Notes: generated by a model from the letters alone, not told the origin. 32,000 nucleotides of DNA from Dendronalium phyllosphericum CENA369 (GCF_016056275.1 NZ_JAECZA010000316.1:2656-34655), one strand, 5' to 3'. Positions 15,400-31,727 are shown, numbered from the stretch's first letter. Program-made: numbers and translations.

Positions 15400-17550
15400 C
15401 TACAGCCTATTCACAATATTTCCATTAAACCAGGCAATCTTCTTTAAGTCATGACATAACCATTCATAAGCTAGCTCAGTTGCAGAGTTTGGTTTGAATA
15501 CATCTAGTACTTCTGAATTTATAGAAGCGTAAAGCCATGTTGATGCTTCTTTCCTTAGTGATAACAGTTGACTGTTCAAAACAGAAATAGAATAATCACA
15601 GCCTTTTGGAAATAAATTTTCTTTTGTGGGAAAAAAGCACAAGTCTACGCAGCTTTGTTTGCCTTTCGGCAGTGGTTCCCAATAAGATATTATCCAAGGT
15701 TGGTTATTATATGAATTTGGTAAAATAATTTTTCCTACAAAACGCGCTGGCAGCGTTACTGCCGTTGTCAGCCTGGGCGCAAATTTGGAAAAATACGTAT
15801 TAACTAGTTGCTGGTATCCCTCAATAGCACCTTCGTAAACAGCTTTTGCACGAACTAATAATTGTAGTTCGGAGTAGCTCTCCCATATCCATCCATCTGT
15901 AATATCAATATCTGGTTCAGGCCACGGAGAATGCAACTCGGCTTCTCCATCTTGGCGGAGGCTGTTAACTTGAGCTATAAGGTGCTTAAGACCGTAGCAG
16001 TATTCGTACTCGTTTACCCAAGAAGGAATATTCAATGATGACTTAGAAAGACATTCTTCAATTTCACTCAGAGAAATAGGACTATAATTTAACTCCCCAC
16101 GACTAGTAACTATAAGTGCGGTCTGCCAAACAATTTCTTTAAAAATTGATCCGTGGTTGACTGGCAGCATACGCTTTTCCAATAATTGAGATAGTGAACT
16201 ACTAAGCTCATTAAGCGTCAAATTCCAAGCCAAAGCTGATTTATGATTAGCCACCTTAACGCCTGTTAATCCAAACCAATTGGATAATAATTCTGGCTCA
16301 GAAAATGGCGATATAACAATATCAGGCAGATTCTCATCACCACAGTACCAACCAGTTGTCAGATACATTTCGTCTGCGTCAACACCAATTGGTAAAAGCG
16401 TATTATCCTCACGTACTGGTGCAATTAACTTAGAAAGTGGAGCAATACCATCTATCCATGCCTGCATCGCTGTTCGTATTCTTCGCCCAAATTCCAGTGA
16501 TAATGGTAAAGGAACTGATTGTGTGACGTTCCATCTTGTTATTGCCAGCTCTTCCTTGACAATCTCTGAAATAAATGCAGGATGTTTCTGGACTAGTGGC
16601 ACAAGTACCTTTGATACTTGCTCATAACTGTAATTACCAACAAAGATAGCTAGCGGATAGCGCCAACGTTCGAGCCGCTGTGGCTCAAGTTTGAGATCAT
16701 TGGGGTCAATGATGCCAGCAGCTAAACTTTGCGCTGCAAACCATTGTGTTAGAATTGGCAGCGGGAAACCAATAGTTCCTGCATTCTCAACAACTAACCC
16801 CGTATTTAAAAGCATCTGAAATTCTGATGTTGTTCCGCCGATGTCAGTCTTAGAAACTACACCTATACTACAGTCAGTAGCTTGAGCAGCAAGGCATAGT
16901 AGTAATTGCTCAACATTAGAGTTGTTTGCTCTTGCTTTTTCGAGGGAACGTTCAACAAGATTTGACAGTAAATCCCCAGGCGAGGTTGATGCTATTGTGC
17001 CTTGGTTTTTTAAATAGACACCAAGCAATACTGCAAATAAAGGTCGGCGAATAGCATGACGGATGGACTCCGGCCATTGGGAAGAAACATATGGCGGAAT
17101 TGGTTGTTTTGAAATTCTTTCTACAAGAGCATATGCTTCATTCTCTGTAAGTGGAGGAACTTGAACAGCCTCTTCAACTTTAGATAAAGCGGGGATAGCT
17201 CTGCTAGTAATTACTAGGGTAGTTTTTTCCCATGTATTAACAAGAATGCGAGCTTCATTAAGTAAATGTGCTGCTAAGGCGCTTCCTGCTTCGTCAGCCC
17301 CGTCAATGATTGCGGTAACACCTTGTGAGAAGGACTGTCCTAGCTTGCTGATTTCTTCTTCTATAGTTTTTTGTAACTGTCCTGCCACCTGCTGCGCTTT
17401 TAAATCCACAGGTATAGGAGCTGCGGGATTTTTGCGGGCCTGTTTAATTGCATCTTGGAAGAGGCGTTGTGCAAGCAATGACTTACCTACACCAAAATCA
17501 CCGATTAGTATTATTAAAGGGTTTTCATCATTAGGTTGAAACTTAGACAA
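15400..17550 (-). CDS. NACHT-type STAND NTPase (NLR-like) with non-repetitive C-terminal region; frame stays open upstream to 17715
   Basis: Walker A is LIGDFGVGKS and the NACHT-style Walker B is AIIDGADEAG. The ~450-aa C-terminal region has no recognisable repeats. The only start is TTG 17550, and the 55 codons upstream are stop-free and in frame with the 149-aa ORF. Confidence 0.8.
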   Translation of the reverse strand: MSKFQPNDENPLIILIGDFGVGKSLLAQRLFQDAIKQARKNPAAPIPVDLKAQQVAGQLQKTIEEEISKLGQSFSQGVTAIIDGADEAGSALAAHLLNEARILVNTWEKTTLVITSRAIPALSKVEEAVQVPPLTENEAYALVERISKQPIPPYVSSQWPESIRHAIRRPLFAVLLGVYLKNQGTIASTSPGDLLSNLVERSLEKARANNSNVEQLLLCLAAQATDCSIGVVSKTDIGGTTSEFQMLLNTGLVVENAGTIGFPLPILTQWFAAQSLAAGIIDPNDLKLEPQRLERWRYPLAIFVGNYSYEQVSKVLVPLVQKHPAFISEIVKEELAITRWNVTQSVPLPLSLEFGRRIRTAMQAWIDGIAPLSKLIAPVREDNTLLPIGVDADEMYLTTGWYCGDENLPDIVISPFSEPELLSNWFGLTGVKVANHKSALAWNLTLNELSSSLSQLLEKRMLPVNHGSIFKEIVWQTALIVTSRGELNYSPISLSEIEECLSKSSLNIPSWVNEYEYCYGLKHLIAQVNSLRQDGEAELHSPWPEPDIDITDGWIWESYSELQLLVRAKAVYEGAIEGYQQLVNTYFSKFAPRLTTAVTLPARFVGKIILPNSYNNQPWIISYWEPLPKGKQSCVDLCFFPTKENLFPKGCDYSISVLNSQLLSLRKEASTWLYASINSEVLDVFKPNSATELAYEWLCHDLKKIAWFNGNIVNRL

Positions 17551-19194: not shown

Positions 19195-21453
19195 CTAAAG
19201 GGATCTCCCTCTACTCTGTCTTCTTTCTTGTTGCCGCTTTTCTTCTATTATTTGTTGCAATACGCGCTCTGCTTCACGCCAAAAGCCGAGGTCAAGAGAG
19301 TCTACTGACCCTACATTAATCGGTGAATACTCAAGCTCACCTGACTGGTTTCGGTTGACCGCCACTCGAAATATTTCACCTCGTTCATCATGGGTAAACA
19401 CCAATTCTCTACCCTGTTTTTCTAAAGTTGCTCGTTTGAATCTCAGGCTATTTGAGCCACTTTCTCTTAATTGCCAATTGATTAATTCAACAGCAACAGG
19501 CACAGCGAAGGCTAAATATTCGGACTGTAACTGCTGTTTTTGGTCAAGTTGCTGTGATGGTTGTTCTTGCTTTGATGCCAATTGATTGTTAGCGATTAGA
19601 ACTAATGCTTTAGCTTCATCAGCAGTCCATCCGGCTGGACTGCCTAGTATAATTTCTTCAACTTCTTCGACTGACTTATTATCTAATAGCGCCAAGGTAG
19701 CAATTTCTTTGTCTCGGTCAGTCACTAATAAGTTTTGTAAGTCGGTGCTGTAATACTTATATAACTCGGCTCTTAGTTCCTCTTTTAGTTTTGGTTGATC
19801 TGTGGTTAGAGTTGAAGCTTTATTAAGAGCGTTCGCATCCACTGCTTTTTGTGATCTGTGGAGTTGCTCCAAATAAACAATCACTGCAAAGAGGTCATCG
19901 AATGTGGTTTTTCCGGCTTTAAGTTGCTGCCGATATTGAGATAGTTGTTCGGTTAATTGTGGTAACGTTTCAATCAAGGCTGACTCAACTACTGATTGTT
20001 CAATAAAGTTAGCGATTGCATCCACTGCTTTTTGTAATGAAAGTTGTTGCTCCAAATCAGTAATTGCCGTTGACAAGTCGTTTAATGCGATTCTTCCTTC
20101 TTTTAGCTGCTGCTGATGCCCGTGTAATTGTTCTAGAAATTGTGGCAACCCTTCAACCAAGGCTGACTCAACTGCTCTTGAGTCAATATAGTTAACGATT
20201 GCATCCACTGCTTTTTGTGATATAAGTTGTTGCTCCTGTTGAGCAATCACCGCTCTTAGGTCGTCTAATGTAGTTCTTTCTTCTTTTAATTGCTGCTGAT
20301 ACAGTAACAATTGTTCTGTTAATTCTGTTAATTTTGGTAATGTTTCAACTAAGGCTGACTCAACTGCTCTTGAGTCAATATAGTCAACAATTGCATCCAC
20401 TGCTTTTTGTGATGTAAGTTGTTGCTCCTGTTGAGCAATCACTGCTCTTAGGTCGTCGAATGTAGTTCTTTCTGCTTTTAACTGCTGCTGATAAAGTGAC
20501 AGTTGTTCTGTTAATTCTGTTAATTGTGGTAACGTTTCAACTAAGACTGACTCAACTGCTGACTGTTCAATATAGTTAACGATCACATTTATGAGTTCTT
20601 GGTTGTCAACTGCTCGCCCGACATGATTATGCAACAGTTGCTCAATTCGCTCATCATCCCGTTGTGGCTGATAGTCAATTTCTTTATGTTTTTGCAGTCC
20701 AGGCCAAGTATAGGCAGGCCCCAAAGATGTACCGCTAAATTTCTGCCCGTTCCACGAGTAAGAGATGCCTTTACTTTTGCCGTTGCGTGTTACACCGTGA
20801 CGAACTTCTACGCCTTGTAGTTGCAGTCGTTCAATAACTTGGGGCATGATCGGTCTATTTACCGTGGCGCGGTCGATGAGTTCAATTAGTTGTTGTTTGA
20901 TGGGACGTTCTTGTGGCGAGAGGCGATCGCCTTTAATGTATTCAAGCTGCTCTCGCTCTAGTCGTCTTTGTTGCCCAATACTTGGGTTGCGGGTTAATTT
21001 ATCGTGGCTGCTGTGAGTTTGTTGTAACCCGTAATCCCGTTCTAGCTGCCGGATAATACTTTCACTGCGTTTGTAATCCCAGCTATCATGAACTATCTTG
21101 CCGTTGTCCAAACGGATGCGACTAGCGCAGATATGGATGTGGTCGTGCTGAGTGTTGCTGTGTCTGTAGACTACATACTGGTTGCTGTCAAAACCCATCT
21201 CTTCAAGGTAGCGTTGAGCGATTTCGTTCCAGGTTGCGTCATCGAGTCGTTCGCCTTGGGGTAGAGATAGTGATGCGTGGTAAACTACTCTGTCGGCTTC
21301 ATAGTTCAATTGACGCGAGATTTTGAATTCAACAGCCAGGGCGCGGGGGTTTCTGCCGCCCATGTTGCCACCAATAAGTTTGGCTCCTTCTTGAGATTGG
21401 AGATAATTGAGCAGTCCGCGAAATCCTCGCCCCTTAGTCTGGTTGCCAATCAT
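19195..21453 (-). CDS. MOB relaxase (MobA/VirD2-type relaxase domain) with repeat-containing coiled-coil C-terminal half
   Basis: GRGFRGLLNYL carries the catalytic Tyr context, with YHASLSLP and the histidine triad HSNTQHDHIHICASRI. ATG 21453 (MIGNQTKGRG) is preferred; the ORF track uses TTG 21492. Confidence 0.9.
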   Translation of the reverse strand: MIGNQTKGRGFRGLLNYLQSQEGAKLIGGNMGGRNPRALAVEFKISRQLNYEADRVVYHASLSLPQGERLDDATWNEIAQRYLEEMGFDSNQYVVYRHSNTQHDHIHICASRIRLDNGKIVHDSWDYKRSESIIRQLERDYGLQQTHSSHDKLTRNPSIGQQRRLEREQLEYIKGDRLSPQERPIKQQLIELIDRATVNRPIMPQVIERLQLQGVEVRHGVTRNGKSKGISYSWNGQKFSGTSLGPAYTWPGLQKHKEIDYQPQRDDERIEQLLHNHVGRAVDNQELINVIVNYIEQSAVESVLVETLPQLTELTEQLSLYQQQLKAERTTFDDLRAVIAQQEQQLTSQKAVDAIVDYIDSRAVESALVETLPKLTELTEQLLLYQQQLKEERTTLDDLRAVIAQQEQQLISQKAVDAIVNYIDSRAVESALVEGLPQFLEQLHGHQQQLKEGRIALNDLSTAITDLEQQLSLQKAVDAIANFIEQSVVESALIETLPQLTEQLSQYRQQLKAGKTTFDDLFAVIVYLEQLHRSQKAVDANALNKASTLTTDQPKLKEELRAELYKYYSTDLQNLLVTDRDKEIATLALLDNKSVEEVEEIILGSPAGWTADEAKALVLIANNQLASKQEQPSQQLDQKQQLQSEYLAFAVPVAVELINWQLRESGSNSLRFKRATLEKQGRELVFTHDERGEIFRVAVNRNQSGELEYSPINVGSVDSLDLGFWREAERVLQQIIEEKRQQERRQSRGRSL
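19847..20613 (-). repeat. four in-frame tandem coding repeats (210, 192, 183, 183 nt) inside the relaxase gene
   Basis: The marker GCATCCACTGC recurs at 19835, 20018, 20201 and 20393. The protein units are AVD(A/N)..VESALVETLP.LTEQL..YQQQLK....DDL.AVI..QEQQL.SQK. Confidence 0.85.
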
Positions 21454-21832
21454 CGGTTTCCTCATCCTCCTCAGATATGAAGGTTTTGGCAATTTCTCGT
21501 TGGCAGTGCCGCAACAGTTCTAGTAGTTCGTTTAATAGTTCTGGATCTGCTGGCGGTGGCAGTTGCATTTTGATGGCAGTGTTGGCAACTTTGGCCAATT
21601 GGTTGATGTTGTTGCCGATGCGGGAAAGTTCCAAGTAGGTGGCTACTGTAACTCTGCCCAGTCGCGGCGGCGGTGGTGGAATTGGTCGCAGTAACATACA
21701 ACGTCTTGTCAGTTCTGCCAAGCTCATACTCGCGTCTTCTGCTTTTGACCGAACCATCTCATATTCAATTGGGCTGAACCGCGCTTGCAGTCTTTTGGTG
21801 CGGATGAGTGACGACGAAGAACGCTTGGTCAT
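21434..21832 (-). CDS. mobC: MobC-family relaxosome accessory protein
   Basis: RFSPIEYEMVRSKAEDASMSLAELTRRC (RHH-like) and IGNNINQLAKVAN are typical of MobC. It lies immediately upstream of, and overlaps, the relaxase gene. Confidence 0.85.
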   Translation of the reverse strand: MTKRSSSSLIRTKRLQARFSPIEYEMVRSKAEDASMSLAELTRRCMLLRPIPPPPPRLGRVTVATYLELSRIGNNINQLAKVANTAIKMQLPPPADPELLNELLELLRHCQREIAKTFISEEDEETDDWQPD

Positions 21833-22812: not shown

Positions 22813-23589
22813 ATGGCGGTTAAATCAAAATCATCAGCTGATTCTGCTAAACAAAAACCTACTAATCAGCCAAAGACTGTTGGGCGTTTAGTTTTGGTGA
22901 CTGGCGATAAGGGCGGCACTGGTAAAAGTGTGGTGGCAAGAATTCTCCTCGATATTTACCGCCACAGAAATATCAACTGTATTGCTTACGAATGCGACCA
23001 GTCAAATCCTCAGCTTTATCGCCACTATAATAAGGTGCAACCTGGGGTGTCAGGGTTGAAACTTAATCAGCGCGGTGGTGCTGATGCTTTGCAGGATGAT
23101 TTGAAGCGTTTATCTCCTAAAGTATCTCTGGTGGATCTCCCTGCTGGGGCTGCGGAATATTTTGAGTCGGTGGCTAAGGATATTTTTCTGTTTCAAAATG
23201 CCCAGCGTTTGGGTTATCGCATCACTATGGTATCGGTTTTAGGACGAGTCAAGGATAGTGTTTTGCAGTTAAAACGCTTAGTGGATTTTTGCGGCGACCG
23301 TGTTGATTATGTGGTTGTGAAAAATCTTTACTGGGGTGATGAACACAAGTTTACTCGCTATAACAATTCTAAGGTCAAACAATCTGTAGAAGAATTGGGG
23401 GCAATTGAACTGTTATTGCCTGAGTTATACGACGATATTTTTGATTTGATTGACTCAAAAGACCTTACCTTCAGGGAGGCGTTAGAGCATGAGGATTTTA
23501 GTTTGAGTAATCAGTCGAGAGTTTATGGCTGGATTGATGCGGTTGAGTCTGAGTTTGCTAAGGCTGCTGTGCAATTGGGGTTAGAGTAA
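22813..23589 (+). CDS. ParA/MinD-like P-loop ATPase (TraL-like position in a mobilization leader operon)
   Basis: Deviant Walker A is VTGDKGGTGKSVVA, with VSLVDLPAG. The ATG abuts the upstream stop. Confidence 0.7.
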   Translation: MAVKSKSSADSAKQKPTNQPKTVGRLVLVTGDKGGTGKSVVARILLDIYRHRNINCIAYECDQSNPQLYRHYNKVQPGVSGLKLNQRGGADALQDDLKRLSPKVSLVDLPAGAAEYFESVAKDIFLFQNAQRLGYRITMVSVLGRVKDSVLQLKRLVDFCGDRVDYVVVKNLYWGDEHKFTRYNNSKVKQSVEELGAIELLLPELYDDIFDLIDSKDLTFREALEHEDFSLSNQSRVYGWIDAVESEFAKAAVQLGLE

Positions 23590-24987: not shown

Positions 24988-26013
24988 TTGGAGCAACTAC
25001 ACACGCAATTGCAGCAAGTAAACTTAGTTTCTATTTCTGCGATAGAAGGCATGGGAGGAGTGGGCAAAACAGAACTCGCTATTCAGTACACTCAGCAGTA
25101 TAAATCGTCTTATGAAGGAGGTATCTGCTGGCTATTTGCTAGAGAATTTAACGTAGGTACTCAGGTTATCGGGTTTGCCCAATCTCAACTGAACCTGAAA
25201 ATTCCAGAAGGATTAGAATTGTATGACCAAGTAGCTTTTTGCTGGCGAAACTGGTGTGAAGGTGATGTTCTGCTGGTATTGGATGATGTGGTTAACTATC
25301 GCCGAGATATCGAACCATACTTGCCGTCTGCTGCATTCACCCGCTTCAAGATAGTGATGACAACTCGGCAAAAGTTTAGTCCACCCGTTCAGTCGCTGTC
25401 TCTAGATGTGCTGTCTCCAGAACAATCTCTAGAATTGTTGACAGTTTTAATTGGGAAAGAACGAGTTCAGCAGGACTTTGAGATAGCCAACACACTTTGT
25501 CATTGGTTAGAGTATCTACCTCTGGGAATCGAACTTGTTGGGCGCTATTTGCTTGAGCGAAAGGAGCTATCGCTTTTCACACTGCTGTTCCGGCTGCAAG
25601 AGAAAGCCTTGGAGCGGCAAGCAATTAGATACGCCGCTCTTAAGCTAAATGAGGAAAATAGTACTTCAACAGGTAGACGGGGGGCAGAAGCTGCGTTTGA
25701 GTTGAGTTGGGTTGAGCTAGATAACAACAGTCAGCACTTAGGTAAGTTATTGAGTGTGTTTGCATCTGCACCAATTCCCTGGTACTTAGCTGAGTCAGCC
25801 GAGCGAAACTATTGTGAAAACTCTAATGGTGGTAACAAGTTTGATGTTGAGGAAATGGAGGAAGCAAGAGCTAAGTTATTAAGATTTCACTTGCTACAAC
25901 TTTTGCAGCAGCAGGAGCAAATCTACCGTCTACATTCGCTAATTCGTGAGTTCTTTAGAAGCAAGTTAGAAGGAGAACCTGATGTTACAACTTCGGACTC
26001 AAAAGCAAATTGA
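24988..26013 (+). CDS. NB-ARC-type STAND NTPase domain (NLR-like); coding sequence evidently begins upstream of the TTG, and the C-terminus is frameshifted into the TPR ORF
   Basis: GMGGVGKTELA (P-loop), VLLVLDDV (Walker B), KIVMTTRQ, and YLPLGIELVGRYL (GLPL-like). The conserved pre-P-loop motif FIGRESELEQL straddles or precedes the TTG start. Confidence 0.8.
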   Translation: MEQLHTQLQQVNLVSISAIEGMGGVGKTELAIQYTQQYKSSYEGGICWLFAREFNVGTQVIGFAQSQLNLKIPEGLELYDQVAFCWRNWCEGDVLLVLDDVVNYRRDIEPYLPSAAFTRFKIVMTTRQKFSPPVQSLSLDVLSPEQSLELLTVLIGKERVQQDFEIANTLCHWLEYLPLGIELVGRYLLERKELSLFTLLFRLQEKALERQAIRYAALKLNEENSTSTGRRGAEAAFELSWVELDNNSQHLGKLLSVFASAPIPWYLAESAERNYCENSNGGNKFDVEEMEEARAKLLRFHLLQLLQQQEQIYRLHSLIREFFRSKLEGEPDVTTSDSKAN

Positions 26014-27739
26014 AGCAAAGAAATTAAAACGTGCTGTGGCTGCTGCAATGGTAGCAATTTCTCAAAAAATACCTGATTCACCAACTCAAGAGGATATTAA
26101 ATTAGTAAAAGATGCAATACCACATTTAGCGGAGGTGGCACAAAATCTAACTGATGTAGTTAGTGATCAAGATTTAATTTGGCCTTTTGTAGGCTTAGGT
26201 AAATTTTATCGGGGACAGAGTTTGTATGCGATCACACAAGCTTGGTGTGAGGAATGCGTAACAGTATTAAAATCCCGCCTTGGGAATGAACATCCTCATG
26301 TAGCAACTAGTCTGAATAATTTAGGAGAAGTCTATTGTTCTCAAGGACGTTACAGCGAAGCCGAACCTTTGCTCATGCAAGCTTTGGTGATGAGGAAACC
26401 CTTGCTAGGAGACGAACACCCAGATGTCGCAACTACTATGAACAATTTGGCATCTCTCTACAGTTCCCAAGGACGGTACACCGAAGCGGAACCTTTGCTC
26501 ATCAAAGCTTTGGCAACGTATAAACACCTGTTGGGGGATAAACACCCTAATGTCGCCATTAGCCTGAATAATTTGGCAAAACTTTACAATTCCCAAGGAC
26601 GGTACACCGAAGCGGAACCTTTGCTCATCGAAGCTTTGGCAACGTATAAACACCGATTTGGGGATGAACACCTTAATGTCGCCATTAGCCTGAGTAATTT
26701 GGCATCTCTCTACAGTTCCCAAGGAAGGTACACCAAAGCCGAACCTTTGTATATCAAAGCTTTGGAAATGACAAAACGCCTGCTGGGGGATGAACACCTT
26801 GATGTCGCATCTAGTATGAACTGTTTGGCTGGACTTTACGACTCTCAGGGACGCTACACTGAAGCTGAACCCTTGTACGTTGAGGCTTTGGTGATGAGAA
26901 AACGCCTGCTGGGGGATGAACACCCTGATGTTGCATCTAGTATGAACAATTTGGCATTTCTCTACAGTTCCCAAGGACGGTACACCAAAGCCGAACCTTT
27001 GTATATCAAAGCTTTGGAAATGACAAAACGTCTGTTGGGGGATGAACACCCTCATGTAGCACAAAGCCTGAATAATTTGGCATCTCTCTACCATTCTCAA
27101 GGACTTTACAGCGAAGCCGAACCTTTGTTCATCCAAGCTTTGGTGATGAGGAAACGCTTGCTGGGAGATAAACACCCTGATACTATATCTAGCCTGAATA
27201 ATTTAGCATTTATCTACCATTCTCAAAGACGTTACAGCGAAGCTGAACCTTTGTTCGTCCTAGCTTTGGTGATGAGAAAACGCCTGTTGGGGGATGAACA
27301 CCCTGATGTTGCAACTAGTCTGAATAATTTGGGAGAACTCTATTATTTTCAAGGACGTTACAGCGAAGCCGAACCTTTGCTCATCGAAGCTTTGGTGATG
27401 TGGAAACGCTTGCTGGGAGATGAACACCCTCATGTGGCACAAAGCCTGAGCAATTTAGCAGAACTCTACCGTTCCCAAAGACGCTATAACGAAGCCGAAC
27501 CTTTATTCATCCAAGCTTTAGCGATGAAAAAACGTTTGCTGGGAGATAAACACCCAGATATTGCATCTAGCCTGAACAATTTGGCAGGACTCTACTATTT
27601 TTTAGGACGTTACAGTGAAGCCGAATTTTTGTTAATCGAGACTTTGGAGATTTTGGAACAAGAGTTAGGAGCAAATCATCCCAATATAATCACGACGCAA
27701 AATAATTTGGAATCTTTGCGTCAACGTCGTCAGTCTTAG
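25982..27739 (+). CDS. TPR-repeat (kinesin-light-chain-like TPR_10/12) sensor region of the NLR, encoded in the +1 frame relative to the NB-ARC ORF
   Basis: Eleven ~42-aa repeats of the form HP.VA.SLNNLA.LY.SQGRY.EAEPL...AL.M.KRLLGDE. The frame is open from 25970 and overlaps the NB-ARC ORF end (26013). Confidence 0.8.
   Translation: MLQLRTQKQIEAKKLKRAVAAAMVAISQKIPDSPTQEDIKLVKDAIPHLAEVAQNLTDVVSDQDLIWPFVGLGKFYRGQSLYAITQAWCEECVTVLKSRLGNEHPHVATSLNNLGEVYCSQGRYSEAEPLLMQALVMRKPLLGDEHPDVATTMNNLASLYSSQGRYTEAEPLLIKALATYKHLLGDKHPNVAISLNNLAKLYNSQGRYTEAEPLLIEALATYKHRFGDEHLNVAISLSNLASLYSSQGRYTKAEPLYIKALEMTKRLLGDEHLDVASSMNCLAGLYDSQGRYTEAEPLYVEALVMRKRLLGDEHPDVASSMNNLAFLYSSQGRYTKAEPLYIKALEMTKRLLGDEHPHVAQSLNNLASLYHSQGLYSEAEPLFIQALVMRKRLLGDKHPDTISSLNNLAFIYHSQRRYSEAEPLFVLALVMRKRLLGDEHPDVATSLNNLGELYYFQGRYSEAEPLLIEALVMWKRLLGDEHPHVAQSLSNLAELYRSQRRYNEAEPLFIQALAMKKRLLGDKHPDIASSLNNLAGLYYFLGRYSEAEFLLIETLEILEQELGANHPNIITTQNNLESLRQRRQS
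26288..27676 (+). repeat. about 11 tandem 126-bp coding repeats (TPR units)
   Basis: The periodic DNA and protein repeat is seen directly. It also generates long spurious antisense ORFs. Confidence 0.85.
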
Positions 27740-27774: not shown

Positions 27775-27927
27775 GGGGTTCTCGTAGCATCCGTGCAATA
27801 ACTTACGTTAAGGCCAGAAAGCAGACACAGCAACCCTTTTAACAACGGTTAAACATTGCCTAGTTTATATTATTTTAGGCAAAGTTTGTCTTAGCGTAAG
27901 TTTCTGTTCGATTGCTACCAGAACCCC
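27775..27927. repeat. about 150-bp element bounded by ~40-nt imperfect inverted repeats between two convergent genes
   Basis: GGGGTTCTCGTAGCA..AACTTACGTTAAG lies at 27775. Its partner CTTAGCGTAAGTT..TGCTACCAGAACCCC ends at 27927. TTTTAGGCAAAG is directly repeated at 27740 and 27873. Confidence 0.45.
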
Positions 27928-27956: not shown

Positions 27957-30947
27957 TCAACTCTTAACGAGCAGATATTCGGGTGCAAACCACAATTCTC
28001 TGCCGTCTGCAATCAGCCTGCATTGTTCCCCATCAAAAGCAATCACCTCACCCTCCAGCCCATCAAAGCGTCCTCCGGCATTAATCGTCACCGTTTTACC
28101 AATTAGATCCACTGTGGTTGTTAATTGTGCTTCTTGGCACTCTGTATCTAGCCGTGCTTCAGTATTATTTTGATTGTCTACGTAGACAATATCCGATTGT
28201 CTACGGTCGTGCAGACAATCTTTTTCCTCGCTATTATCAGGTATTTGCTGGCATTGAGGGCTATTGTCTACATTGTCTGCATCTTGAAAGCTCTTTTCCA
28301 AATTTGGTTTGTCGAATGCAATAAACCTTACGGAGCGACCTTTACGTACAACTGACCCGTAACCCATTTGAGCCATTTTTTCAAATAGGTCGGCTACGTA
28401 AGCCCCCACTTCTCTTTGAGCCGCCTTAGCGCGGTTTTGAATGGGGCGAGAATCTTTATAAACATCACGGGCGCTGATCCCATCAGGATGTTTACTCAGT
28501 GCCGCAGCGTGAATTTGCAACATAATTGATGCAATGTCATCGCTGGTGCTAACTTTTTCCTGCAAGATATGAAAGGCGCTGCGGTAGTATTGGGCAAAGG
28601 TGACAGCCCGTTTTAAGGTGGCTAGGGATAGTGTTTTGATGTCAGTGGTTCCGGGGCTGTAAAAACACTCAATCAAGTGCAAAGCCAGCGCTATCCGCAG
28701 GATGTGAGTATCAAGCTTGTTCATCCAGGTGCGGATACCAGCATGAGAAATCTGCTCGATTTGGTCGCCGATGCTGTCAACAATTCTGGCAAAATACTTT
28801 TGAGCATCTGGCGCTATCTTGACTGTTTGTTCTGTTAAATTGTCTAACCACTCATAAAGTACGGGCAGGCGATCGCTCAGGCGGCAGTAAGCCCCAGGTA
28901 CGTACCGTTTCTTACGTTGTTCGGGTACTGCAAACAAGAAGCGGGCTTGCATCCCGTTCCCGTCGTTAGCGTCTTTAAAAACTTTGCGGAAAACATCATT
29001 CTGGATGCCACCAGCCAGTGATACTGCTGTGCCAGCAATGCTGTAACTATTTTCAATGTCGGCGCGGTCAACAAATGTTGGCTTGTTGTCCCAAAGCTTC
29101 AGCACCAATTCTGTGGCTTCCGTTTCACTACCGGAAAACTGATTAAGAGAACTAAAAAGTCCTTTAAATTCATCCCGCGCCCACAAAGAACCGTGGTTTC
29201 CTTGTTCTGATAGGCGTTTGAGGACTGATTGAATTGTGGCGACTTCAAACAGGTACTTTCTCAACCCTGGCTTTTCTGGTTCTGGGGCTTCAAAGTCCCC
29301 AGCTTTTTCATACCGGGAGATCGCCCGTTTGTACTCTTTAGCCCTTTCCTTATAATCCGCGTCGGCGCGTAGCTGCATCTCCCGTAGTGGCGCAAAAACA
29401 AGGCTGTCAGCACGGGTTTTACCGCCGCCACTCGGTATAACGGTGCAAGTCCAGTTAATCGCAGGGATACCACCATACTCATCCAGAGTAAACGTCCCTG
29501 CTAATGACGATACGGCAGGCAACAAAGCTTGCCAAATCATTACAGGGTCAATATTAAGTTTTTCTGCATCATGCTTGATGTCGCGGGCTAGGGGCGCGGG
29601 TAATACTTCATCCCAGTTAATCCGAGTTTGGCTGTAATCCATTAAGGATTTCAGCCGGATTTCGTCTTCTGGTAGTACTTCATTCACTTTTACTCGTTGA
29701 CTGGAAACAATGCTTTCAAATAATTTCCGGTCAACTAGGTCTTCGTACTGATGATAAAGAGAGTTAAGTTTTTGACGTTCTACAAATTCCGAATAATTAG
29801 ACTCGATAATAGTGTAGATATTGCCGACAATAGCTTGAATTATTCTCTCATCATCATTTTTGGGTGTAGACAATGGCGTAGACAATAAGCCATTGTCTAC
29901 GTAGACAAGAGATTTTCTACTTAAATCAGGTGTTGTACTGATATTAATTTGATACTTTTTCAGCCAAGCGGAGTAACATCCTTGTAGCTTTTCATCATCA
30001 AGGCTGGGGCGAATGGCTTTCGCGTCGGCTTTTCTCCACCAACCTTCGCGCTCCTGTGAACTAAGTGGCGGTGTGCAGCGATCGCAGAACACATCGTACA
30101 AAACCCTTGGTAAGTCCAGATGGTCAATCCCTAATTCATGGAGACGACGAGATGTAGCAATCAGATTAAGGCTCAGTTTCTGGGCTGCCATGTTGCGTCC
30201 ACCGTCGCCTGTGCCATGCTCAATTAAGGCGCGGTCATCCTTACCCAGGAAAATTTCTAAGGGGGGGCGACCAATGACAGCTGGTTTTTGAGGTTTTGGA
30301 GTTGGTGCGGGCGCTCTTGTGGGCTGCTGATGGTTCAGCATCAACTCAATTACCCAGTTGGGGCATTTGGCAACCTCAATATCCTGGGGCGATCGCACCC
30401 AGTAATAACTACCAGTTTGGGGGTGTACAGATGGCGGTAGTACGCTTTGCAATCCATTCCAGCGAAATTCTAGTAACTGCTCTTTACCGTCATCGCCCTT
30501 GACCCCAGTTTTGAGCTTGACAGTTTTTACTACTTGCCAGTATTCCTCTGTGACAAAGTAAAGTAACTGTCTGCGCCCAGCTTTGCCAGAGCTAAAAATT
30601 ACTGTATCGGGTAAGTCGCCATCAGCAAGCTTTTGTAGTAATGCTTCTGCTGCGTAACCGTCCGCATCAATGGCTAAAATTCCGCCTGATACTTCACCTG
30701 TGCGGATGCCGTAGCCCAAAGCTTTGCTTGATTGCAGTTCTTTAATCAGCGCCTGCCTACTTAGTGCTGTTTCTCTTTGCCAGTCCTCACGATAAGGGCG
30801 CTTATTGTCTGTAACAGGAGTCAATGCCCAGTGAAGAGGAATTTGCTGTAAGCCTGAAATTAACCGCTCTGCTGTTGTTGGATTCAATTGTGTAGTATGC
30901 ACTTGTATTACCTCGAATTTTCTTTCAAAATTCGGGTAACTCCTCAT
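27957..30947 (-). CDS. replication protein: N-terminal bifunctional primase-polymerase (Prim-Pol) domain, central DUF3987/helicase-like P-loop domain, small C-terminal beta-rich domain
   Basis: PVTDNKRPYREDWQ and GYGIRTGEVSGGILAIDADG match the Prim-Pol pattern. CTVIPSGGGKTRADS is P-loop-like. The C-terminus is GKTVTINAGGRFDGLEGEVIAF (SH3/KOW-like). The exact start is uncertain: ATG 30947 or a downstream GTG. Confidence 0.8.
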   Translation of the reverse strand: MRSYPNFERKFEVIQVHTTQLNPTTAERLISGLQQIPLHWALTPVTDNKRPYREDWQRETALSRQALIKELQSSKALGYGIRTGEVSGGILAIDADGYAAEALLQKLADGDLPDTVIFSSGKAGRRQLLYFVTEEYWQVVKTVKLKTGVKGDDGKEQLLEFRWNGLQSVLPPSVHPQTGSYYWVRSPQDIEVAKCPNWVIELMLNHQQPTRAPAPTPKPQKPAVIGRPPLEIFLGKDDRALIEHGTGDGGRNMAAQKLSLNLIATSRRLHELGIDHLDLPRVLYDVFCDRCTPPLSSQEREGWWRKADAKAIRPSLDDEKLQGCYSAWLKKYQINISTTPDLSRKSLVYVDNGLLSTPLSTPKNDDERIIQAIVGNIYTIIESNYSEFVERQKLNSLYHQYEDLVDRKLFESIVSSQRVKVNEVLPEDEIRLKSLMDYSQTRINWDEVLPAPLARDIKHDAEKLNIDPVMIWQALLPAVSSLAGTFTLDEYGGIPAINWTCTVIPSGGGKTRADSLVFAPLREMQLRADADYKERAKEYKRAISRYEKAGDFEAPEPEKPGLRKYLFEVATIQSVLKRLSEQGNHGSLWARDEFKGLFSSLNQFSGSETEATELVLKLWDNKPTFVDRADIENSYSIAGTAVSLAGGIQNDVFRKVFKDANDGNGMQARFLFAVPEQRKKRYVPGAYCRLSDRLPVLYEWLDNLTEQTVKIAPDAQKYFARIVDSIGDQIEQISHAGIRTWMNKLDTHILRIALALHLIECFYSPGTTDIKTLSLATLKRAVTFAQYYRSAFHILQEKVSTSDDIASIMLQIHAAALSKHPDGISARDVYKDSRPIQNRAKAAQREVGAYVADLFEKMAQMGYGSVVRKGRSVRFIAFDKPNLEKSFQDADNVDNSPQCQQIPDNSEEKDCLHDRRQSDIVYVDNQNNTEARLDTECQEAQLTTTVDLIGKTVTINAGGRFDGLEGEVIAFDGEQCRLIADGRELWFAPEYLLVKS
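28173..28280. repeat. iteron-like cluster A: six copies of ATTGTCTAC / GTAGACAAT inside the rep gene
   Basis: A perfect 18-bp palindrome ATTGTCTACGTAGACAAT lies at 28173-28190. ATTGTCTAC (28196) and GCAGACAAT (28211) form an inverted pair. Tandem ATTGTCTAC ATTGTCTGC lies at 28263-28280. Confidence 0.7.
29866..29920. repeat. iteron-like cluster B: four to five copies of the same 9-mer inside the rep gene
   Basis: GTAGACAAT occurs at 29866 and 29878. The palindrome ATTGTCTACGTAGACAAG lies at 29892-29909, and a degenerate ATTTTCTAC at 29912. Confidence 0.7.
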
Positions 30948-31121: not shown

Positions 31122-31238
31122 TTAATTGCTCGGAGGAGCGTTGCAGTTGTCTCCTTGCCTAAGAAAATGGTTAACTGCCACTCGTTCGAGTACCCGCTCA
31201 ATCCGGTCTACTCCATTAGGTTGGTCAGCGTAGGTCAT
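31122..31238 (-). CDS. possible 38-aa small protein translationally coupled to the XRE gene
   Basis: ATGA overlaps the XRE stop, and a strong SD (AAGGAGG) lies 4 nt upstream of the ATG. It translates as MTYADQPNGVDRIERVLERVAVNHFLRQGDNCNAPPSN. It is below the length cutoff of the ORF track. Confidence 0.3.
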   Translation of the reverse strand: MTYADQPNGVDRIERVLERVAVNHFLRQGDNCNAPPSN

Positions 31239-31471
31239 TTGTCCTCCTTGTCTTCTTCAATTTCTTCTGGTGGAACCCAGTAAATTAGCTCACTAGGTTG
31301 GACACGGTAATAATCGCAGATTTTGTTTAAAGCTGTAACTTGTGGTATCCAATCTGGATTGTCATATAAGTTGTAAGCGGTACTAGGTGCTATACCCGTA
31401 TCTTTTTGAAAGCGATAACGAGTAATGCCCAAACCGTCTACAAATTGTTTGACTTTGTTCCTTATAGGCAT
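31235..31471 (-). CDS. XRE/Cro-type helix-turn-helix transcriptional regulator
   Basis: ITRYRFQKDTGIAPSTAYNLYDN and LNKICDYYRVQPSELI fit the typical HTH_XRE layout. It is the first gene of the minus-strand rep operon. Confidence 0.85.
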   Translation of the reverse strand: MPIRNKVKQFVDGLGITRYRFQKDTGIAPSTAYNLYDNPDWIPQVTALNKICDYYRVQPSELIYWVPPEEIEEDKEDK

Positions 31472-31483
31472 TCAGTAACAATA

Positions 31484-31592
31484 AACGGTTATTAATACAA
31501 CCATTTATCATTGCTAATTTACAACCGTTAGTAAATATCAAACGATTTATATTAATGAGCACTTGACATTAATGAACGGTTATAGCTAATAT
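31484..31592. promoter_or_regulatory. divergent promoter/operator region with three AACGGTT(A) sites
   Basis: AACGGTTA occurs at 31484 and 31575, and inverted as AACCGTTA at 31523. TTGACA (31563-31568), an 18-nt spacer and TAATAT (31587-31592) form a plus-strand promoter-like pair overlapping the third site. Confidence 0.4.
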
Positions 31593-31727
31593 CATAGTGT
31601 CCGGGTTATCGATACGTCAACAGCCAGGACATAGTTATTTAGCTATAAACACAGGTTATCTGCATTGCGTCTGTTTTATATCTGCGGTCGCAGTAATTGT
31701 GCGTGTCTGCATCATGACAGAGGACTC

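Follow-up and report, generated by a model that had tools for sequence, protein, structure and literature searches.

Short repeats in the linker-coding DNA of a cyanobacterial PrimPol-DUF3987 replication gene as candidate initiator-binding sites

Introduction

Why does a plasmid replication gene carry clusters of short repeats inside its own coding sequence? The question is raised by a 32,000-nt stretch of DNA from Dendronalium phyllosphericum CENA369 (GCF_016056275.1, NZ_JAECZA010000316.1:2656-34655; hereafter the window, numbered from its first letter), in which the replication gene, rep, encodes a primase-helicase and contains several copies of the 9-mer ATTGTCTAC/GTAGACAAT. The reading that we favour, with a probability of roughly 0.6, is that these 9-mers are Rep-binding origin or cis-replication sites overprinted on the DNA that codes for two disordered linkers of the protein. 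An origin inside an initiator gene (lambda O), the primase-helicase-winged-helix architecture and fusions of an archaeo-eukaryotic primase (AEP) with DUF3987 and a winged helix (WH) are already known. The literature searched holds no description of a cyanobacterial PrimPol-DUF3987 family with words in two disordered linkers that switch in concert, and the cyanobacterial Rep papers searched mention no iterons.

The rep gene and two clusters of one word

The source is a mobilisable plasmid of the Nostocales, as indicated by HIP1 palindromes and a gene for a MobA/VirD2-type relaxase, and the best matches of the window are plasmids of Tolypothrix, Nostoc and Microchaete. The closest Rep, with 95% identity, is that of Nostoc minutum NIES-26 (L011; L numbers label the compared rep loci, which were taken from plasmid records and genome contigs). 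In Pfam, the window Rep has a Prim-Pol domain (PF09250, residues 39-198, E 5e-26) and a DUF3987 domain (residues 471-790, E 5e-40). PF08707 (PriCT) is recorded in many of its homologues; the window Rep itself stays below the PriCT_2 threshold in its own Pfam scan, and a helical bundle is modelled at residues 230-332. An AlphaFold model built from 49 homologues (mean predicted local distance difference test score, pLDDT, 80.9) places a helical N-domain and the P-loop core at residues 367-800, followed by a winged-helix-like unit with helices at 805-860 and a beta hairpin at 864-877. Foldseek matches the PrimPol part to the prim-pol domain of pRN1 ORF904 (1rni, 3m1m) and the ATPase part to MCM and ORC/Cdc6 AAA+ proteins and the SCCmec Cch helicase. 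Two internal segments of the model have a pLDDT below 50 and are longer than 20 residues, and these are the two linkers in the following list.

27957..30947, minus strand: rep gene (open reading frame (ORF) call; 996 amino acids), with the domain order PrimPol, PriCT-like helical bundle, disordered linker 1, helical N-domain plus DUF3987 (AAA+/MCM-like) helicase, winged helix, disordered linker 2, KOW-like beta domain
29871..29948, minus strand: disordered linker 1, residues 334-359, pLDDT 28-47, holding most of cluster B
28317..28535, minus strand: predicted winged-helix domain, residues 805-877, immediately preceding linker 2, in the order H-H-H-H-beta hairpin
28116..28307, minus strand: disordered linker 2, residues 881-944, pLDDT 24-35, holding cluster A
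27966..28115, minus strand: small C-terminal KOW-like beta domain, residues 945-994 (AlphaFold), whose fold matches the SPT5 KOW structures 2e70 and 8p4e_Z

Several homologous Reps begin at window residue 16/17 (MHTTQ...), and the true rep start may hence be the GTG at codon 16 and not the ATG at 30947 (30900-30947); the 95% identical Nostoc minutum protein aligns from residue 1.

A preliminary description of this DNA had reported six copies of the 9-mer at 28173-28280, arranged as a palindrome, an inverted pair with a 6-nt spacer and a tandem pair. All of these are present at those positions (cluster A; four exact copies and two with one mismatch), and a second group, cluster B, lies 1.7 kb away and uses the same 9-mer, again in both orientations.

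28173..28190, unstranded: cluster A perfect 18-bp palindrome ATTGTCTACGTAGACAAT, head-to-head 9-mers ATTGTCTAC GTAGACAAT at 28173-28181 (+) and 28182-28190 (-)
28196..28219, unstranded: cluster A inverted pair with a 6-nt spacer, ATTGTCTAC ggtcgt GCAGACAAT, at 28196-28204 (+) and 28211-28219 (-, ATTGTCTGC, one mismatch)
28263..28280, plus strand: cluster A abutting tandem pair, ATTGTCTAC at 28263-28271 and ATTGTCTGC at 28272-28280 (one mismatch)
29866..29920, unstranded: cluster B, five copies (three exact, two with one mismatch), with a near-palindrome at 29892-29909, same-orientation copies at 29866 and 29878 and one copy at 29912
29814..29831, unstranded: degenerate tandem pair ATTGTCGGC AATATCTAC (gene strand, two mismatches each), located where the helix of the helicase N-domain begins

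Both one-mismatch copies of cluster A read ATTGTCTGC, with TGC in place of the TAC that is found in most relatives. At the degenerate pair, close relatives have the exact TGTCTAC and other clades have their own word twice. Start-to-start spacings are 9, 14, 15, 52 and 9 nt in cluster A and 12, 14, 9 and 11 nt in cluster B. Cluster A spans codons 890-925 and lies within disordered segment 881-944, and cluster B spans codons 343-360, its final site ending one codon past disordered segment 334-359. The earlier assignment of the repeats to a linker-coding part of a primase-helicase gene is thus borne out by the ORF, the Pfam domains and the low pLDDT, and extends to a second linker.

The number of copies exceeds chance. 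The window contains seven exact 9-mers, compared with about 0.24 expected under a uniform model, and 19 copies with at most one mismatch, compared with 7.9 +/- 3.1 in shuffled sequences, none of which reached 19 in 100 shuffles. All seven exact 9-mers, and all eight copies of TTGTCTAC in the window, fall inside the rep ORF in clusters A and B; outside the rep gene, the 32-kb window has no copy of the word TGTCTAC.

Conservation of the repeats as DNA

A conserved peptide repeat could, in principle, account for such clusters. The 9-mer copies are, however, read in all three frames and in both orientations. The palindrome at 28173-28190 encodes I-V-Y-V-D-N and is invariant in six relatives, the inverted pair at 28196-28219 is read in a different frame (D-C-L ... 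R-R-Q-S), the tandem pair at 28263-28280 gives A-D-N-V-D-N on the gene strand, and the copies of cluster B, which are kept in relatives and have counterparts of the same geometry with other words in other clades, are read in three frames as LVYVDN, LLST and PLST. The repeats are therefore not a peptide repeat.

The conservation pattern leads to the same conclusion. In an alignment of six genomes of one subclade (the window, L011, L012, L013, L001 and L014), the 9-mers form invariant islands within a drifting linker: 95 of 99 repeat bases are invariant (96%) compared with 94 of 176 other linker bases (53%; Fisher p = 3e-15), and the value for the remainder of the rep gene is 68%. At third codon positions, 94% of the bases inside repeats are invariant, compared with 44-48% elsewhere (p = 5e-9). 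Judged from these substitution patterns, the 9-mers are under nucleotide-level selection, and a peptide-repeat explanation is ruled out by the three frames, the two orientations and the third-position conservation taken together. The preliminary description had proposed that the DNA does double duty, and had suggested comparing homologous rep genes for conservation at the nucleotide level over the protein level. This comparison agrees with the proposal: the repeats are kept at synonymous sites while the linker drifts, no synonymous variation separates the copies, and clusters are found in all close homologues and in most of the about 40 examined, with lineage-specific words that switch in concert at the same gene positions.

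Lineage-specific words across the family

Each homologous locus was searched for over-represented words without prior assumption. Clusters occur at the same gene positions in most of about 40 full-length rep homologues (23-95% identity), and in the loci compared the intragenic arrangement is thus family-wide. Homologues above about 36% identity have both clusters, most clades at about 30% identity have the cluster in the C-terminal linker only, sometimes with up to 25 copies, and a few distant relatives have weak repeats, with three to five copies of a word. In the clades at about 30% identity, the copies tend to form a block in one orientation followed by a block in the opposite orientation. 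The words found are as follows.

TGTCTAC: window clade, L008, L042
TGTCAGT (sister-clade (AGT) word ATTGTCAGT): L003, L004, L015, L016, L018, L023
TGTCAAC: L019, L020
TGTCACC: L006, L007, L021, L024, L026, L029, L031, L034, L036, L039
TGTCGGC: L009, L010, L043, L044
TGTCATC, TGTCTAA, TGTTGAC (L022, L037) and TGTGGAG: other loci

Most lineage words have a TGT(C/T) core in common. One gene uses one word, which is shared by both clusters, and the words switch in concert between lineages while the geometry is kept, with a palindrome followed by single copies and finally by a tandem pair where the first helix of the helicase N-domain is encoded. The encoded protein follows the word, both in the residues encoded by the palindrome (V-Y-V-D-N, V-S-T-D-N, V-N-V-D-N and V-T-G-D) and in those at the start of the helix (IVGNIY, IVSVVS, IVTTVN and IVTSVT). 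Concerted change at ten or more sites is what would be expected of binding sites that co-evolve with a binding protein, and would not be given by neutral repeat turnover.

Separate repeats within about 400 nt upstream of rep are seen in several Chroococcales- and Pleurocapsales-type relatives (L026, L029, L031, L034, L036, L038, L007, L032 and L050). These sets (TGTTCTA or TGTTTTA; CTCTAGA at a 21-nt period; an AAACGTT palindrome at a 21-nt period) do not resemble the intragenic word and probably serve other proteins as operators. The idea that the iterons have moved upstream of rep in such relatives is ruled out, as intragenic TGTCAC(C) clusters are present there too.

Related rep genes that coexist can share a word. 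L009 and L010, on Nostoc sp. CENA543 plasmids pCENA543a and pCENA543c, both have TGTCGGCG, and L036 and L039, two rep copies on one Chroococcopsis gigantea replicon, both have TGTCACC. The word alone is therefore unlikely to determine incompatibility.

The module that the words accompany

The words stay with the helicase/WH(/KOW) module of Rep, as two kinds of rearranged gene indicate. L020 is a DUF3987-only gene without PrimPol that has kept both TGTCAAC clusters. Conversely, L025, L027, L028 and L030 have a PrimPol-PriCT part 60-66% identical to that of the window fused to an AAA_25 helicase, and no TGTC-type cluster follows their PriCT; they have other repeats, at a 21-nt spacing, near the 3' end of the gene. 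The sites exist, accompany this module and fall in predicted disordered linkers.

Within the module, the winged-helix domain of the model is the most likely candidate to bind the repeats. For the AEP-DUF3987-WH and primase-helicase-WH architectures, published predictions assign origin recognition to the WH (PMC5862659, PMC2777425). The WH sequence varies from one word group to another, in step with phylogeny.

Other PrimPol fusions have dense arrays of lineage words in the 3' part of the gene. These lie at codons ~715-845 in the AAA_25 fusions L025, L027, L028 and L030 and at codons ~935-1105 in the Chamaesiphon types L055 and L060; one example is TTGTTGAGTA at a 21-nt spacing. The presence of origin-like repeats within the rep gene may therefore be a general feature of cyanobacterial PrimPol replicons.

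A candidate origin inside the rep gene

We infer Rep binding, the domain used, an origin role and cooperation between the clusters from the observations above, and propose the following sequence of events. Rep would bind the words as duplex DNA, most likely via the winged helix that follows the helicase. Dimers of Rep may occupy the head-to-head pairs and further copies the tandem sites, so that several Rep molecules are recruited. Bound Rep would then nucleate AAA+/MCM-like helicase rings, which would open the neighbouring, moderately AT-rich DNA, and the PrimPol domain would make the first primer. The two clusters could jointly constitute the origin, or could comprise an origin and a further cis-acting site, the second cluster being a cooperating cis site. 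The sites would be overprinted on the sole tolerant parts of the gene, namely the DNA of the two disordered linkers.

A bolder, joint version of this proposal is one that we hold only tentatively, at somewhat less than even odds. In it, the family's origin would be written into the initiator gene and split over two disordered linkers, the word would dictate linker residues, and a change of specificity would rewrite at least ten sites in both linkers. The clusters would cooperate, like an ori and crr, by looping across the helicase-coding DNA and loading head-to-head AAA+ rings, and the minimal replicon would be approximately the rep ORF alone.

Several features of the DNA resemble those of origins. 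The most AT-rich 50 nt of the rep gene abut cluster B and form a candidate unwinding element.

29911..29960, unstranded: most AT-rich 50 nt of the rep gene, 76% A+T, 99th percentile of the window

Family-wide, the DNA next to the clusters is moderately rich in A+T (0.58-0.70, compared with 0.54 for the gene). At L037, a contig of Komarekiella delphini-convector, codons 892-1012 comprise two GTTGAC pairs, a 71% AT spacer and an array in the opposite orientation, all of it coding; on inspection, this arrangement resembles a textbook origin placed within a gene. The 7-kb Microcystis plasmid p1 encodes a shorter DUF3987 Rep and has, just 3' of that gene, non-coding DNA with ten GTCACC-type words. 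The pRN1 origin is likewise located just downstream of orf904 (PMC4234260). Such arrangements suggest a plausible history in which an origin that once flanked the ORF on its 3' side became part of it, as a disordered linker together with an added C-terminal domain.

Other observations weigh against a role as Rep-bound origin. The sites are short (7-9 bp), mixed in orientation and irregularly spaced, unlike phased iterons of 17-22 bp. The flanks are no more than moderately AT-rich, and in only about half of the loci does the AT-richest stretch coincide with a cluster or adjoin one. A DnaA box was not found near rep, the single match in the window being at 23316, although an initiator equipped with a helicase and a primase of its own would fit this absence. 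Some small plasmids hold additional, different repeat sets elsewhere, and elimination did not single out an origin in the small (7-kb) plasmids, each of which has more than one repeat set. The words shared by the coexisting CENA543 plasmids and by the two rep copies of the Chroococcopsis replicon are not predicted by a simple model in which the word sets incompatibility. Variation of WH residues is inseparable from phylogeny. Where one word recurs in distant clades (TGTCTAC in the window clade and L008/L042; TGTTGAC in L022 and L037), these clades have no obvious WH residues in common. Finally, the literature searched contains no binding or replication experiment on any member of the family.

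GC and AT skew across the window follow the coding strand and give no origin signal, promoter and terminator scans gave nothing above chance near the clusters, and none of the public sequencing runs contains more than 27% of the rep-region words.

Alternative roles for the repeats

The alternative that survives best, though we consider it unlikely, is that the repeats are Rep-bound control sites, acting as an autoregulatory roadblock to rep transcription, in Rep titration or in handcuffing, and that initiation takes place at another site, one example being the AT-rich DNA that precedes the XRE-rep operon. In iteron plasmids, inverted pairs and palindromes typify the operators to which dimers bind. 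The DNA flanking the clusters has only a moderate A+T content, and the AT-richest DNA nearby is the promoter region of the XRE gene (31471-31600, 72-78% A+T). This gene, located upstream of rep at 31235..31471 on the minus strand, encodes an XRE/Cro-type helix-turn-helix protein (HTH_26, E 8e-10), and its promoter region contains three copies of another repeat, ATAACCGTT/AACGGTTGT, at 31484-31583. That repeat, however, travels with XRE into a plasmid with another replication module: Nostoc sphaeroides plasmid p3 has a 95%-identical XRE, with AACCGTT at the XRE promoter, next to a module composed of a hypothetical protein and DnaB. The recurrence of the motif at the p3 promoter suggests that ATAACCGTT is probably the XRE operator. 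Moreover, as TGTCTAC is confined to rep within the 32 kb, a Rep-recognised origin located elsewhere would lack Rep sites, and opposed arrays around an AT-rich spacer, as at L037, resemble origins.

We regard as improbable a second alternative, in which the sites are bound by a protein other than Rep, such as the upstream XRE regulator, a centromere-binding partition protein or a host factor. In the window, as in several relatives, rep is preceded by an XRE gene and small ORFs, and clusters of short repeats are typical of plasmid centromeres. Against this, the neighbouring genes vary among plasmids that share the feature (ParM/ParG, ParA, none, HNH), leaving Rep as the sole constant partner, and the words remain with the helicase/WH module in a gene that lacks PrimPol. 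If a host factor were the binder, lineage-specific words would not be expected among plasmids whose hosts are related. The preliminary description had named the XRE protein as a possible binder, and this part of it is not supported: p3, with its near-identical XRE and candidate operator, has no TGTCTAC in 12.8 kb, and XRE is therefore disfavoured and probably not the repeat binder.

Next in rank, and likewise improbable, is a role as hairpins in single strands, either as signals in the rep mRNA (inter-domain translational pausing, RNase sites) or as single-stranded DNA (ssDNA) priming signals for PrimPol. Both clusters are located exactly at domain boundaries and fold as ssDNA far better than shuffled controls (z -3.6 to -7.5), but such folding is an automatic consequence of inverted repeats, and a hairpin needs complementarity and not one fixed word. 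The same word is also found in unpaired tandem and direct copies, does not differ between the clusters despite their separation of 1.7 kb and switches in concert between clades, and the clades at about 30% identity form long same-orientation arrays that are unable to pair locally.

That the repeats have no function and are a slippage or duplication by-product of low-complexity, fast-evolving linker DNA is hardly credible, for although linker-coding DNA is prone to repeat expansion (L007 has plain tandem repeats with a 33-nt period), slippage makes neither palindromes nor inverted copies nor the same word in linkers 1.7 kb apart, and would neither hold 96% of repeat bases invariant amid varying spacers nor give concerted word switches across about 40 genes; the explanation is rejected on the inverted copies, the invariance and the concerted switches.

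Comparison with known replication systems

As in embedded origins of the lambda O and RepA_N type, the repeats lie in the initiator ORF, in poorly conserved interdomain segments, and are selected as DNA. The preliminary description had drawn on lambda and on phage P4 as precedents. For lambda, the precedent is documented: ori lies inside gene O and consists of four 18-bp iterons and a 38-bp AT-rich segment (PMC3349717). In both cases, initiator-binding repeats (putative in rep) are found in the initiator's own coding DNA together with an AT-rich stretch, so that the DNA is at once coding sequence and cis-element. Unlike the window Rep, lambda O is not a primase-helicase and depends on the P protein to engage the DnaB of the host. 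The lambda iterons, 18 bp long, form a single cluster, whereas rep has two clusters of 7-9-bp words that are 1.7 kb apart in two linkers, and the two proteins have no sequence or domain homology.

The P4 alpha protein is reported to bind an octamer, the type I iteron TGTTCACC; copies of it in either orientation make up ori and crr, two clusters that lie apart from each other and are both needed in cis. This resembles the two kb-apart clusters of one short word in both orientations in rep. P4 ori and crr lie outside the alpha coding sequence, whereas the window clusters lie inside rep. The architectural analogy is documented, in that alpha is a single polypeptide with a primase, a helicase and a C-terminal winged-helix DNA-binding domain (PMC2777425). 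The window Rep is also a single-polypeptide primase-helicase with a WH after the helicase, but the domains belong to different families: alpha has a DnaG-type primase and an SF3 helicase, the window Rep an AEP PrimPol and a DUF3987 AAA+/MCM-like ATPase. In the Pfam scan the window Rep has no alpha domains, and a sequence search of the Protein Data Bank with the family profile gave no match at all, 1KA8 included. By analogy, the feature would work like those of lambda and P4, and it is a member of neither system.

Among AEP proteins, the closest architecture is that of pRN1 ORF904, which likewise has a Prim-Pol domain, a PriCT-like domain, a helicase and a WH. AEP-DUF3987-WH fusions have been catalogued in the PrimPol-PV1 supergroup, with the WH predicted to recognise the origin (PMC5862659), and the window Rep has the features of this group: Prim-Pol, a PriCT-type helical domain, a DUF3987 P-loop helicase and a modelled WH. 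The architecture of primase, helicase and WH has been proposed to make a self-sufficient initiator (PMC2777425, PMC5862659). The pRN1 origin is immediately 3' of the rep gene, next to its WH-coding end (PMC4234260), and cluster A is at the matching place. In pRN1, however, the helicase is of the SF3 type and the origin is non-coding and has a stem-loop, whereas here repeated words lie inside the ORF. A cognate binding site was not identifiable for the pRN1 protein (PMC2777425).

The cyanobacterial comparison is with CyRepA1 (Slr7037 of pSYSA), a plasmid Rep with primase and helicase domains, for which transcript-primed initiation upstream of the rep gene has been proposed and no iterons are described (PMC9978351, PMC10079941). 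The window Rep gave no match to the CyRepA1 family model in the NCBIfam scan. The RepA of pANS/pUH24, a CyRepA1 by NCBI annotation, has PrimPol-PriCT in common with the window Rep (37% identity, matching residues 7-203 only), but its helicase is SF2-like, unlike DUF3987. In this plasmid (L083, Synechococcus elongatus PCC 7942), positions 1929-2254 contain 13 copies of CTGTTAAC, mostly as the palindrome CTGTTAACAG; they are intergenic, lie about 1.7 kb from repA and are a candidate for the origin of this widely used vector replicon.

Other initiators offer more distant parallels. In RepA_N plasmids (pAD1, pSK41), the origin iterons reportedly lie in poorly conserved central rep coding sequence. 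RepA_N initiators (Firmicutes) differ from the window Rep in that they have an unrelated fold (DnaD-like N-terminal domain), no primase or helicase, a single cluster and hosts of another phylum. Large T of SV40/polyomavirus and E1 of papillomavirus recognise words of 5-6 bp arranged as inverted pairs, and assemble as two head-to-head hexamers by AT-rich DNA. This layout resembles the palindromes described here and the opposed arrays in relatives, but large T and E1 are eukaryotic viral SF3 helicases with another origin-binding domain and non-coding origins. The RepA_N iterons often have short inverted sub-repeats (PMC7145576). Classical iteron origins of the F, R6K, RK2 and pPS10 type are a poor match: rep has no phased direct repeats of 17-22 bp, and its product is not a Rep_3/double-winged-helix initiator.

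Other features of the window and its relatives

Beyond the clusters, the gap between rep (ends at 27957) and a convergent tetratricopeptide repeat (TPR) gene (ends at 27739) contains a 38-nt inverted repeat (27775-27812 / 27890-27927, 79% complementary, 77 nt between the arms), which may be a bidirectional terminator or another cis-element. The TPR ORF (TPR_12/TPR_10, 25982-27739) is composed of about 11 copies of a 126-nt tandem repeat (26282-27651), and its start is overlapped by an NB-ARC ATPase ORF (24988-26013); the two resemble a STAND NTPase and are possibly a single gene that has been split or frameshifted. NACHT-like ATPases are encoded at 465-1916 and 15400-17550 (-). The MobA/VirD2-type relaxase gene (19195-21492, -) contains a 192-nt tandem repeat at 19948-20583 (3.4 copies, 82% matches). 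L011 has, ~900-1900 nt downstream of rep, an array of about 15 tandem copies that repeats every 66 nt and contains the words TCAAATAA / AGCAATAT.

Implications

Cyanobacterial plasmid replication origins are little known. If the words are Rep sites, the origin could be read from the rep gene across plasmids of the Nostocales, Chroococcales, Pleurocapsales and Oscillatoriales, minimal shuttle-vector replicons could shrink to the rep ORF, and the lineage words would be a starting point for predicting specificity and compatibility. If the joint version, with the whole origin inside the gene, is also true, it would offer compact, orthogonal replicons for cyanobacterial vectors with a specificity readable from sequence. 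The primase-helicase-WH type of initiator would also gain an explicit candidate recognition sequence, of the kind that could not be identified for the pRN1 protein (PMC2777425). More broadly, these rep genes provide a natural example of a cis-element overprinted on coding DNA, in which disordered linkers give evolutionary slack and the protein follows the code of the DNA.

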